Shown here: piece by piece, positions 20,350-20,445 of the stretch
Layout: each line of letters begins with the position of its first letter
Numbering within the stretch: the stretch's first letter is position 1
Source: Klebsiella phage LPKP23
Reading direction: 5' to 3' (one strand)
Length of the DNA stretch: 64,000 nucleotides
Sequence record: PV112478.1
Notes under the pieces: generated by a model
Database searches by the model: none
What the model was told of the DNA's origin: nothing
Seen by the model: the letters and a program-made list of their open reading frames with translations, nothing else
Made by a program: the position numbers and the translations under genes

Positions 20350-20384
20350 TATAATCTAGTGCTCTACCGGCTGAGCTATCTGCC
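20350..20384 (-). tRNA. tRNA 5' half (acceptor 5' strand, D arm, anticodon stem 5' strand and loop), forming a permuted or split pair with 20415-20445
   Basis: Minus sense reads aggcaga-ta-gctc-agccggta-gagc-a-ctaga-ttataaa. It is complementary to the acceptor and AC-stem strands in the 3' half, which lies 30 nt upstream in the transcription direction. Confidence 0.4.
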
Positions 20385-20414
20385 TCCAAGAAACACTCTA
20401 TGAATGTGTCCAGG

Positions 20415-20445
20415 TAGGCAGAGCGGAATTCGAATCCGCGACCTC
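20415..20445 (-). tRNA. tRNA 3' half (anticodon stem 3' strand, variable loop, T arm, acceptor 3' strand, discriminator)
   Basis: Minus sense reads tctag-aggtc-gcgga-ttcgaat-tccgc-tctgcct-a. Joined to the 5' half it gives a perfect 73-nt cloverleaf with 7/7 acceptor, 4/4 D, 5/5 AC and 5/5 T pairs. Confidence 0.4.

Follow-up and report, generated by a model that had tools for sequence, protein, structure and literature searches.

The tRNA-like element on the minus strand of the giant Klebsiella phage LPKP23 (sequence record PV112478.1; positions 20,350 to 20,445 of the 64,000-nt stretch analyzed here, hereafter the window) is probably the tRNA-like domain of a structured noncoding RNA of ∼200 nt, RNA B, which is the second of a tandem pair located downstream of a DUF7873 gene, and it is very probably not the permuted gene for a decoding tRNA that a sequence-only reading had proposed. 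Both RNAs of the pair, A and B, are likely to be tRNA mimics sharing the layout of the YrlA-type bacterial Y RNAs, i.e. a T arm, a closed acceptor hairpin, and a D arm. The locus comprises the following features, listed in minus-strand order.

20741..21508, minus strand: DUF7873 (PF25283) gene, 255 aa (Pfam E 2.7e-72)
20672..20700, minus strand: hairpin then U-rich tract, between the DUF7873 gene and RNA A (RNAalifold columns 6-36)
20549..20665, minus strand: RNA A, irregular terminal stem plus tRNA-like domain (MFE fold; consensus fold)
20573..20649, minus strand: tRNA-like core of A (scanner; A-type alignment A6)
20500..20534, minus strand: linker hairpin between A and B, CUUUAUCUU...AAGAUAAAG (MFE and consensus folds)
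20298..20498, minus strand: RNA B, which holds the reported element; two-part terminal stem plus tRNA-like domain (MFE fold, RNAalifold)
20451..20471, minus strand: small hairpin UUCUUUC-UUUUACG-GAAAGAA directly 5' of the anticodon-stem (AC) strand of B (ARAGORN, MFE fold, consensus fold)
20355..20449, minus strand: tRNA-like core of B (sequence reading, scanner, Rfam YrlA 37.6 bits, B-type alignment A3)
20246..20297, minus strand: two 3' hairpins, 20297-20286 and 20283-20246 (phage comparison, consensus fold)
20161..20188, minus strand: intrinsic terminator, 12-bp GC-rich stem plus U run (terminator scan; compensatory changes in FBKp24)

Structure of the tRNA-like units

The core of B opens with the AC 3' strand and the variable loop; the T arm and acceptor 3' strand come next and are followed by A73-CC and an 18-bp extended acceptor hairpin, after which the acceptor 5' strand, the D arm, and the AC 5' strand complete the unit. 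On the minus strand, the T arm and acceptor 3' strand (20449-20415) are separated by a 29-nt spacer from the acceptor 5' strand, D arm, and AC strand (20385-20355), as detailed below.

20449-20445, minus strand: AC 3' strand TCTAG
20444-20440, minus strand: variable loop AGGTC
20439-20423, minus strand: T arm GCGGA-TTCGAAT-TCCGC
20422-20416, minus strand: acceptor 3' strand TCTGCCT
20415, minus strand: discriminator A
20414-20386, minus strand: spacer
20385-20379, minus strand: acceptor 5' strand AGGCAGA
20378-20377, minus strand: dinucleotide TA
20376-20361, minus strand: D arm GCTC-AGCCGGTA-GAGC
20360, minus strand: single A between D arm and AC strand
20359-20355, minus strand: AC 5' strand CTAGA
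20354-20348, minus strand: TTATAAA after the AC 5' strand

All stems of the element pair fully. The permuted order described earlier, with a 3' half, a spacer, and then a 5' half whose acceptor strand matches that of the first, is genuine; it is conserved and looks functional. The sequences had been given as they stand, but their positions were off by 1-5 nt. In the alignment of 34 B-type units (A3), the T, acceptor, and D stems are 96-100% paired, with covariation at every pair, and in that of 30 A-type units (A6), the T and acceptor stems are 99% paired, again with covariation, which is found in all stems across the two sets. In B, C74 and C75 pair with the two G's preceding position +1, a pairing that could hinder RNase P. 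ARAGORN reports a "tRNA-Stop(tta)" at 20413-20496, and GenBank records of related phages label part of the locus "tRNA-Sup-TTA" or "tRNA-Stop(tta)"; the ARAGORN prediction is a mis-call in which the T arm of B is combined with the small upstream hairpin (20451..20471) taken as an anticodon arm.

At 20649-20573, 124 nt upstream of the B core, is a second unit built in the same way. The core of A combines an AC stem (ATGAC/GTCAT), a T arm (GGAAG-TTCGACT-CTTTC), and an acceptor stem (TTCTCCC/GGGAGAA) closed by the loop A-CCA-AACTAT. Its 3-bp D arm is identical to the enterobacterial tRNA-Leu D arm, nucleotides 8-26 showing 100% identity to tRNA-Leu genes in all 5426 E. coli genomes. Neither A nor B is recently copied from a tRNA gene of the phage itself. 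Applied to the 299-kb genome of the near-identical phage KpSz_1, our own scanner, which looks for a T arm and a D arm together with an AC stem and a closed acceptor hairpin of 7 bp, returned exactly two units, A and B, against a background of 0.35 matches per genome (20 shuffled genomes, loosest criteria). Both RNAs are ∼100% conserved between phages with ∼88%-identical flanks.

Each tRNA-like domain is carried on a terminal stem. In B, 20498-20491 pairs with 20305-20298 and 20485-20477 with 20318-20309, a bulged G being conserved; RNAalifold against L209, a locus with a 62%-identical protein, reveals 7 compensatory pairs, and another locus (L039) has a homolog of the 5' motif GGACUGAACUUU of B together with its 3' partner. 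In A, GUCCG.GU.GCA-GGUGU-GAUGAC pairs with GUCAUC..GCACC..UGC.AC.CGGAU, with partial compensation against L209. Compensatory support for the long terminal stem is strong for B and weak for A. Around the two RNAs, the A-B linker hairpin has a conserved loop, AUCGCCUCACACGC, and the second 3' hairpin (20283-20246) shows compensatory changes between phages. The hairpin at 20672..20700 may be either a terminator/attenuator of the gene or the 5' end of an RNA precursor. The terminator at 20161..20188 is likely the end of the RNA transcript. A suspected long-range pairing of "AUGGGCGGU" with the linker "AUCGCC" was dropped because the motif is not enriched across loci.

Linkage to the DUF7873 gene

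The DUF7873 gene, which is single-copy in the KpSz_1 genome, lies directly upstream of both RNAs on the same strand, A starting 76 nt past its stop codon. The window thereby contains the module that recurs elsewhere, namely a stand-alone DUF7873 gene of ∼250 aa with one or two permuted tRNA-like units encoded on its strand within ∼1 kb downstream. At least one tRNA-like unit is present within 1.3 kb downstream on the same strand in 142 of 159 DUF7873 loci, which belong to Actinomycetes, Cyanobacteria, Chloroflexi, Myxococcota, Planctomycetota, and diverse phages. The 202 kb of downstream sequence hold 207 same-strand units and 10 in the opposite orientation, compared with 7 in 407 kb upstream; the gene-to-unit gap has a median of 120 nt, and two or more units occur in 61 loci, the strict scanner retaining just one unit in about half of the DUF7873 loci. 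In a test without selection on pairing, in which units downstream of DUF7873 genes were anchored by T-loop and D-loop sequence motifs, all 7 of 7 acceptor base pairs formed in 108 of 116 pairs (5 expected), involving 67 different acceptor sequences. Across loci, the flanks of the units are more complementary than shuffled sequences (-22.1 versus -15.9 kcal/mol). The acceptor 3' strand is followed by N-CCA in 96 of 203 units and by N-CC in 31 more, for which chance would give ∼1.6 and 6%, respectively. In phages, the module is found near or inside tRNA arrays.

The DUF7873 family counts ∼2,300 representatives at 50% identity. Sequence searches of PHROGs, PADLOC, NCBIfam, and PDB returned nothing, and RNA binding is not supported by the DUF7873 fold, because neither the structural model (pLDDT 89) nor the sequence has a relative that is informative. 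Clustering of neighboring ORFs in DUF7873 loci gave no second conserved neighboring protein, and Pfam scans of the window ORFs to 10 kb upstream gave AAA-type ATPases and a Macro domain only, with no RNA-repair genes. The recurrent layout of a DUF7873 gene with tRNA-like RNAs suggests, on genomic grounds, an RNA-protein partnership, of which we found no description in the literature.

Comparison with YrlA-type Y RNAs

The YrlA and YrlB bacterial Y RNAs (Rfam RF02553; Chen et al. 2014, PMC4201824; Wang et al. 2018, bioRxiv 10.1101/312249) are the closest known relatives in design. Their likeness to circularly permuted tRNAs has already been published; tandem pairs can arise from a shared precursor, published YrlAs are encoded no more than 4 kb from Ro60 and in the same orientation, and a dimeric tRNA transcript has been proposed as their evolutionary origin. 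The YrlA of Mycobacterium smegmatis, whose acceptor stem spans 7 bp, is cleaved by RNase P and bears CCA in vivo, and a structural study predicted an unknown effector that recognizes the conserved tRNA elbow. YrlA RNAs have been reported in 22 phages; the statement that the arrangement is not known from phages therefore fails for the architecture, and it holds for true permuted tRNA genes within the literature searched.

The phage RNAs show T, closed acceptor-like, and D stem-loops within an AC-like stem formed by the 5' and 3' segments, which is extended into a long stem as in YrlA/YrlB. They also resemble these RNAs in the T and D stem sequences of B, in forming a tandem pair that adjoins one protein gene, in their occurrence in phages and near tRNA genes, and, in the case of the RNase P-opened, CCA-bearing M. 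smegmatis YrlA, in the 7-bp acceptor stem. YrlA (RF02553) is the only Rfam family that matches B end to end (37.6 bits, E ∼1e-6, full model length), a score within the 32-49 bits of phage YrlAs adjoining Ro genes but below the gathering threshold of 69 and close to the ∼35 bits that tandem ordinary tRNAs reach on this model as false positives. The model does not match A, and at gathering thresholds no Rfam family matches the locus. On the other hand, A differs from YrlA in its class-II-like 3-bp D stem copied from tRNA-Leu, and most units differ from the majority of YrlAs, described as poor RNase P substrates, in keeping a 7-bp acceptor and an encoded N-CC(A), which makes opening by RNase P plausible.

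The phage RNAs also depart from YrlA/YrlB in having DUF7873 as their constant neighbor, and no Ro60/TROVE gene is found in the phage genome or nearby in DUF7873 loci. The best match of a TROVE HMM over the whole 299-kb KpSz_1 genome has E = 0.93, tblastn with the Bxz1 Ro protein recovers no Klebsiella phage, and no TROVE ORF lies within the 2.5-kb flanks of ∼160 DUF7873 loci; the same HMM finds divergent TROVE genes adjoining other viral YrlAs. A comparison of DUF7873 with TROVE by hhalign was negative (probability 0.1%), and a single viral locus (L146) has DUF7873 together with a weak TROVE match. The published Ro60-binding motif GNCGAAN0-1G, located near the 5' end of YrlA RNAs, was not found within 90 nt upstream of A or B with a regex of low power that also missed TROVE-linked viral YrlAs, the nearest sequences there being ACGGAAAG and GGACUGAAC.

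Alternative explanations

A true circularly permuted tRNA gene is very improbable. Cleavage of its transcript where the anticodon stem begins and ligation into a circle, which RNase P and 3' trimming would open at the acceptor end, would yield a 73-nt decoding tRNA with anticodon AUA. The halves do stand in permuted order, their acceptor and anticodon-stem strands are complementary, all stems are perfect, and the acceptor 3' strand is followed by an encoded N-CC(A); the AC stem of the units measures 5-6 bp, with unpaired nucleotides ahead of the next helix, the first 7 nt after CTAGA are kept in 88%-identical phages, in which the sequence beyond differs, and the module adjoins an RNA ligase and a CCA-adding-type enzyme in one related lineage. 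However, no conserved 7-nt anticodon loop with U33, an anticodon, and a purine at position 37 exists across the family, the sequences after the AC 5' strand varying by locus and position 33 in A being A, not U. The AUA anticodon is without independent support, because ARAGORN calls a tRNA on the joined halves whichever 7-nt loop is inserted. Terminal stems conserved with compensation are unexpected for a discarded leader and trailer, the MFE and consensus folds show no bulge-helix-bulge motif, and the family pairs the units, often two or more of them, with one protein gene. Permuted tRNA genes of Cyanidioschyzon merolae, other algae, and Thermofilum pendens, in contrast, rely on a bulge-helix-bulge, a splicing endonuclease, and a ligase to yield ordinary tRNAs that have an anticodon loop. 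A two-piece (permuted) tmRNA-like ribosome-rescue RNA is less probable still. The units share with two-piece tmRNAs (RF01849, RF01850, RF04321) a permuted gene order, in which the T arm and acceptor 3' strand plus CCA precede the acceptor 5' strand, with an intervening loop whose processing in tmRNA gives a two-piece molecule; A encodes ACCA, and Rfam beta_tmRNA matches partially over T arm, acceptor, ACC, spacer, and acceptor. Yet this match reaches 24 bits, far below the gathering threshold of 84, and ARAGORN predicts no tmRNA anywhere in the window. Both units have a G-C at position 3:70 in place of the G-U expected for alanine identity, the D arm and AC stem are complete, and neither a tag reading frame nor pseudoknots were identified. 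The other proposal of the sequence-only reading, that the element is left over from a tandem duplicate of one tRNA gene in which each copy lost one half, is the least probable of all and is refuted for the present state of the locus. The scanner does respond to identical tRNAs in tandem (L153, L175), and the proposed origin of YrlA from a dimeric tRNA is in line with this idea, but the flanks contain no leftover complementary halves, two distinct units occur next to each other, the region stays almost unchanged where its flanks diverge, and the same design recurs with covarying stems in many loci. A distant origin of that kind may nevertheless apply.

If A and B were canonical Ro60-dependent YrlA/YrlB RNAs, they would bind host Ro60 (Rsr) and tether it to PNPase, the DUF7873 linkage being incidental. 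The shared architecture, the YrlA-like T and D stem sequences of B, the occurrence of YrlA RNAs in phages and, from a shared precursor, as tandem pairs, the L146 locus, and GACGAA-like motifs read by eye just 5' of the tRNA-like domain in some bacterial DUF7873-linked units are consistent with this explanation; it is nonetheless unlikely given the missing TROVE ORFs, the proximity of published YrlAs to Ro60, the GNCGAAN0-1G result, low-powered as that regex is, and a DUF7873 linkage far too regular to be incidental. The linkage could instead reflect a cis-acting role for the mRNA of the gene, as a 3'-UTR element providing an RNase P site or 3'-end protection in the manner of mascRNA or viral tRNA-like structures, in which case A and B would not be independent RNAs. 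Pointing in this direction are the constant location of the units downstream on the coding strand, with a median distance of 120 nt from the stop codon, and a sigma-70 scan that found no promoter between the gene and A. We regard such a role as similarly doubtful, since two domains with conserved terminal stems and NCCA in a structure of ∼500 nt exceed the needs of end protection, a hairpin and U tract separate the gene from A, at a position where the FBKp24 authors annotate a promoter (L001 8729-8760), and in L006 a tRNA and two ORFs intervene between the DUF7873 gene and the unit; rsr-yrlBA provides a precedent in which co-transcription is compatible with trans-acting RNAs.

Proposed model

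In the explanation that we favor, a pair of structured tRNA mimics downstream of DUF7873, A and B would each fold into an L-shaped tRNA body from the T arm, the closed 7-bp acceptor hairpin, and the D arm, with the "anticodon stem" formed by the 5' and 3' segments of the RNA and leading through an internal loop into the long terminal stem in place of an anticodon loop. The two RNAs would come from a single ∼530-nt precursor that stops at the terminator (20188-20161), would be recognized by tRNA enzymes, and would not decode codons. As the 7-bp acceptor is followed by A-CCA in A and by A-CC in B, RNase P cleavage together with 3' trimming or CCA repair could open the acceptor loop, and the product, by analogy with the M. 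smegmatis YrlA, would be a two-piece CCA-ended mimic whose pieces are held together by the terminal stem. Several observations weigh against this explanation: the Rfam score of B below the gathering threshold, the purely genomic nature of the DUF7873 linkage, the loci with a single unit, the tRNA and ORFs that intervene in L006, the C74-C75 pairing in B, and the sigma-70 scan, which gave no promoter upstream of A.

The two RNAs and the DUF7873 protein may then act as a ribonucleoprotein, DUF7873 occupying the genomic place that Ro60 holds beside canonical YrlA/YrlB. Because the phage copies lie within or beside tRNA gene arrays, we infer that the module could act on tRNA or the translation machinery during infection, e.g. 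as a scaffold, a decoy, or a quality-control factor. The fullest version of this model, which we put forward only tentatively, is that DUF7873 and its two RNAs constitute a dedicated, previously undescribed, Ro60-independent ribonucleoprotein, widespread in bacteria and phage-borne in tRNA arrays, in which RNase P-opened, CCA-ended, anticodon-less mimics accompany a protein acting on or deceiving the tRNA-translation machinery; unit A, with its host tRNA-Leu D arm and A73, might even be aminoacylated.

Biological significance

These results remove a false lead and a database error, the locus very probably being neither a permuted tRNA gene nor the suppressor tRNA gene of the "tRNA-Sup-TTA" and "tRNA-Stop(tta)" labels in GenBank. 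The YrlA class of tRNA mimics would likely extend beyond Ro60, since in many phages and in bacteria of several phyla a pair of such RNAs is linked to a compact protein family that has no assigned function. DUF7873 is a concrete candidate for the kind of elbow-recognizing effector predicted for YrlA. For large phages, the module adds a new element to the known tRNA-centered gene sets, with possible relevance to conflicts in which tRNAs are cleaved, repaired, or charged.

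Results

Two permuted tRNA-like units downstream of a DUF7873 gene

The Klebsiella jumbo phage LPKP23 shares 99.8% identity with KpSz_1 and its relatives; its identity with FBKp24 (Maaswegvirus) and with Centimanus is ~88%. The sequence-only reading had described a tRNA 3' half that precedes its 5' half, here part of RNA B; all of these permuted pieces were found on the minus strand in the layout described, at coordinates differing by 1-5 nt. A like-built unit lies in a second RNA, A, and a purpose-written architecture scanner found exactly two units, A and B, in the 299-kb KpSz_1 genome, with a background of 0.35 units per shuffled genome under loose criteria.

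Features of the locus (AC, anticodon stem)
21508-20741, minus strand: DUF7873 (Pfam) gene, 255 aa, directly upstream of A
Minus strand, between this gene and A: hairpin (predicted fold)
~20665-20549, minus strand: RNA A (predicted fold)
20649-20573, minus strand: unit of A, 124 nt upstream of the unit of B; in order ATGAC, CCCACT, T arm GGAAG-TTCGACT-CTTTC, TTCTCCC, then A-CCA-AACTAT, GGGAGAA, TG, a D arm of 3 bp, GTCAT
20534-20500, minus strand: linker hairpin (predicted fold)
~20498-20298, minus strand: RNA B (predicted fold)
20449-20445, minus strand: B, AC 3' strand TCTAG, then variable loop AGGTC
20439-20423, minus strand: B, T arm GCGGA-TTCGAAT-TCCGC
20422-20416, minus strand: B, acceptor 3' strand TCTGCCT
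20415-20386, minus strand: B, A-CC and spacer
20385-20379, minus strand: B, acceptor 5' strand AGGCAGA, then TA
20376-20361, minus strand: B, D arm GCTC-AGCCGGTA-GAGC, then A
20359-20355, minus strand: B, AC 5' strand CTAGA
Minus strand: two 3' hairpins (predicted fold)
20188-20161, minus strand: strong intrinsic terminator

The whole minus-strand stretch is predicted to fold into two like modules, each with a cloverleaf body in which the acceptor hairpin is closed and the anticodon loop is absent, carried on a long irregular stem built from its 5' and 3' flanking sequences. A and B are near-invariant in FBKp24 and Centimanus despite 88%-identical surroundings, and in the same comparison compensatory changes occur in the 3' hairpin and in the terminator. 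At a distant locus, L209, where the adjoining protein is 62% identical, pairing in both helices of the B terminal stem is kept through seven double changes and its bulged G is retained; the A terminal stem is also compensated, in a region where the alignment is poorer.

The single ARAGORN call at the site, "tRNA-Stop(tta)" (20413-20496, minus strand), is a mis-call that fuses the T arm of B with a small upstream hairpin (20471-20451), and the GenBank annotations "tRNA-Sup-TTA" in FBKp24 (L001 8465-8544) and "tRNA-Stop(tta)" in Centimanus (L002 3452-3535) are mis-calls of like make; nothing in these phages therefore points to a suppressor tRNA at this position. The Rfam tRNA model has no match at the locus. 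Elsewhere in the window, the phage tRNA array holds a 97-nt tRNA-like gene (16206-16302, minus strand; Rfam tRNA 38.9 bits) for which ARAGORN makes no call and whose anticodon arm carries a ~23-nt GC-rich hairpin insertion, and upstream of the module lie a Macro-domain protein (29519-29962, minus strand; PF01661, E 6.5e-8) and two AAA-type ATPases (23027-24196 and 24725-25993).

Likeness to YrlA RNAs without a Ro60 gene

YrlA RNAs, a class of bacterial Y RNAs, have a tRNA-mimicking effector-binding module with the order T arm, closed acceptor-like stem-loop and D arm, and their Ro60-binding site sits on the stem made by the 5' and 3' ends of the RNA (PMC4201824; bioRxiv 10.1101/312249). Their likeness to circularly permuted tRNAs has been noted in published work, so that the arrangement seen in B corresponds to the known look of this class. 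Under permissive thresholds, YrlA (RF02553) is the sole full-length Rfam match (20328-20455), at 37.6 bits (E ~1e-6), below the Rfam threshold of 69. For calibration, mycobacteriophage Bxz1 has a YrlA upstream of its Ro gene that scores 32.5 bits, TROVE-linked YrlAs of viral contigs score 38-49 bits, and two neighbouring ordinary tRNAs can reach 35 bits, so that the score is not decisive by itself; the assignment to the YrlA type is decided by the closed, fully complementary acceptor stem and by the absence of the other tRNA halves.

Published YrlAs lie on the same strand as a Ro60/TROVE gene and within 4 kb of it, which is not the case for A and B. No Ro60 gene was detected in the phage: the Bxz1 Ro protein matched 357 phage records by tblastn, none from Klebsiella, and an HMM of 120 Ro proteins, run on the complete KpSz_1 genome, found no TROVE (best E 0.93), while detecting divergent TROVE genes beside YrlA-like units in other viral contigs (E 1e-5 to 1e-13). 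No GNCGAAN0-1G motif was found by regex upstream of A or B, a weak test that also missed Ro-linked controls. A TROVE ORF is absent from the 2.5-kb flanks of all collected DUF7873 loci, and several TROVE-less "YrlA-like" matches found independently by DNA pattern adjoin DUF7873 (L044, L085, L193, L146 and L177).

Association with DUF7873 across bacteria and phages

A permuted tRNA-like unit follows the gene for a 37%-identical DUF7873 homologue on a 94-kb viral contig, and contigs with 52-62%-identical homologues, among them one with bacterial-looking neighbours and one in which a CCA-adding-type nucleotidyltransferase and an RNA ligase come before the gene, each carry two tandem units right after the gene. 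The survey covered 80 loci from bacterial species genomes and 79 from viral contigs, the bacterial ones representing Nonomuraea, Actinomadura, Streptosporangium, Nocardia, Streptomyces, Glycomyces, Microcoleus, Nostoc, Anabaena, Herpetosiphon, Polyangia, Planctomycetota and others. A strict scanner found 114 units at 93 loci, all on the strand of the gene and 113 downstream of it. With a relaxed scanner, one or more units lie in the 1.3 kb downstream of the gene at 142 of the 159 loci, at a median of 120 nt from the stop codon to the first, and 61 loci have two or more; the downstream 202 kb hold 207 units, their opposite strand holds 10, and the 407 kb upstream hold 7. No other conserved protein neighbour was found at the DUF7873 loci.

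In a pairing-independent test that took T-loop and D-loop sequence motifs as its only anchors, 7/7 acceptor base pairs formed in 108 of 116 pairs, versus ~5 with partners permuted, and there were 67 distinct acceptor sequences. The T, acceptor and D stems of 34 B-type cores are 96-100% paired, and each of their pairs shows double changes; in 30 A-type cores the T and acceptor stems are 99% paired and covary, and the D stem has three base pairs, like class II tRNAs.

The DUF7873 family comprises ~2,290 representatives at 50% identity, and the best 150 matches are stand-alone proteins of ~170-280 aa, mostly ~250. Among cultured phages it is present in 74 records, each time as "hypothetical protein", including Vibrio, Rhizobium, Gordonia, Arthrobacter and Pseudanabaena phages and Ralstonia phage phiRSL1, in which a unit lies in the unannotated gap after ORF270; in Gordonia phage GodonK the gene sits amid an array of ~40 tRNAs. 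In cultured phages the RNA region that follows the gene (GodonK, L375 10899-12133; phiRSL1, L373 2098-2583; Keelan, L374 2568-2813) is either unannotated or lies under small "hypothetical protein" CDSs overlapping the unit, such as Keelan gene 126 and, similarly, FBKp24_047 (L001), which are probably spurious. The AlphaFold model of DUF7873 is confident (pLDDT 89), with long helices and long beta-hairpins. Profile comparison with TROVE was negative (probability 0.1%), no match was found in PDB sequences, PHROGs, PADLOC or NCBIfam, and the name did not occur in the literature searched, which also held nothing relevant on Ro-independent YrlA-like RNAs or permuted tRNAs in phages. Eleven DUF7873 loci scanned with Rfam gave only sub-threshold YrlA matches, on the second unit, indicating that a dedicated Rfam family is absent.

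Several further observations concern individual loci. YTTAAAYG is enriched 3' of DUF7873 genes on the RNA strand (41 loci versus 4 on the reverse strand; L214-L372), often ~21 nt past the last unit; in the window, the linker hairpin carries CTTAAAG in its place. A B-type unit on a 356-kb viral contig (L039 322-230, minus strand) shares the 5' motif of B, (A)GGACUGAACUUU (~420, minus strand), and its 3' pairing partner, with ~125 nt inserted between motif and tRNA-like body. A permuted (two-piece) tmRNA (L313 91-300; RF04321, 73 bits) lies ~2.2 kb upstream of DUF7873 on a 76-kb viral contig, and a GOLLD RNA match (L130 2764-3210; 122 bits, gathering score 150) adjoins a large tRNA array and a YrlA-like unit on another. 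In one metagenomic lineage (L212 and L213, 1-3392), a CCA-adding-type nucleotidyltransferase (PF01743) and an RNA ligase (PF09414) precede DUF7873, and tRNA genes surround the locus.

Discussion

A fixed genomic association links DUF7873 to two tRNA-shaped RNAs that are conserved, covary and lack anticodon loops, and our verdict is that these RNAs are YrlA-like tRNA mimics with a different, uncharacterised putative partner protein. The earlier observation of permuted pieces thus stands, whereas its interpretation does so only in part. That B is a true permuted tRNA gene is unlikely: the AC stem of 5-6 bp followed by unpaired bases would suit such a gene, but no conserved anticodon loop is present, A would carry A33, and the terminal stems are conserved. 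ARAGORN does call a tRNA on the joined halves, but regardless of the loop inserted, which leaves the anticodon without independent support. Decay of tandem tRNA copies, offered as the mundane alternative, was rejected, the other halves being absent. A tmRNA-like RNA was likewise rejected; a permuted tmRNA model gave a partial match under permissive Rfam thresholds. Dependence of these Y RNAs on a host Ro60 is possible but unsupported, and a cis-acting 3'-UTR element of the DUF7873 message is the strongest rival to a ribonucleoprotein acting in trans.

As YrlA-like mimics, A and B may share part of the processing of their relatives. RNase P cleaves the YrlA of M. smegmatis, which has a 7-bp stem and bears CCA in vivo; both halves remain together on the protein. 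The acceptor stems of the units studied here are also 7 bp, the acceptor 3' strand is followed by N-CCA in 96 of 203 units and by N-CC in 31 more, and among first units 54 of 61 carry A at the discriminator position; the window units have A-CCA in A and A-CC in B. Opening by RNase P and a CCA end, as in M. smegmatis, would be plausible for these RNAs, especially A, whereas B may stay closed, since C74-C75 are predicted to pair with the two G's before +1 and lengthen the acceptor hairpin. Nucleotides 8-26 of A are identical to the enterobacterial tRNA-Leu D arm, which suggests mimicry aimed at a host tRNA. Leucyl-tRNA synthetase identity in E. coli is set by A73 and the tertiary core, not by the anticodon, so that charging of an opened A is conceivable. 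Phage copies are found within or close to tRNA arrays and, in one lineage, beside a CCA-adding-type enzyme and an RNA ligase, a context that points to a putative role linked to tRNA metabolism or conflict. Together, we infer that A and B would form a Ro60-independent branch of the YrlA kind, acting with DUF7873 as a ribonucleoprotein. The main interest of this finding is that DUF7873, a widespread family with no assigned function, gains a testable RNA partner.
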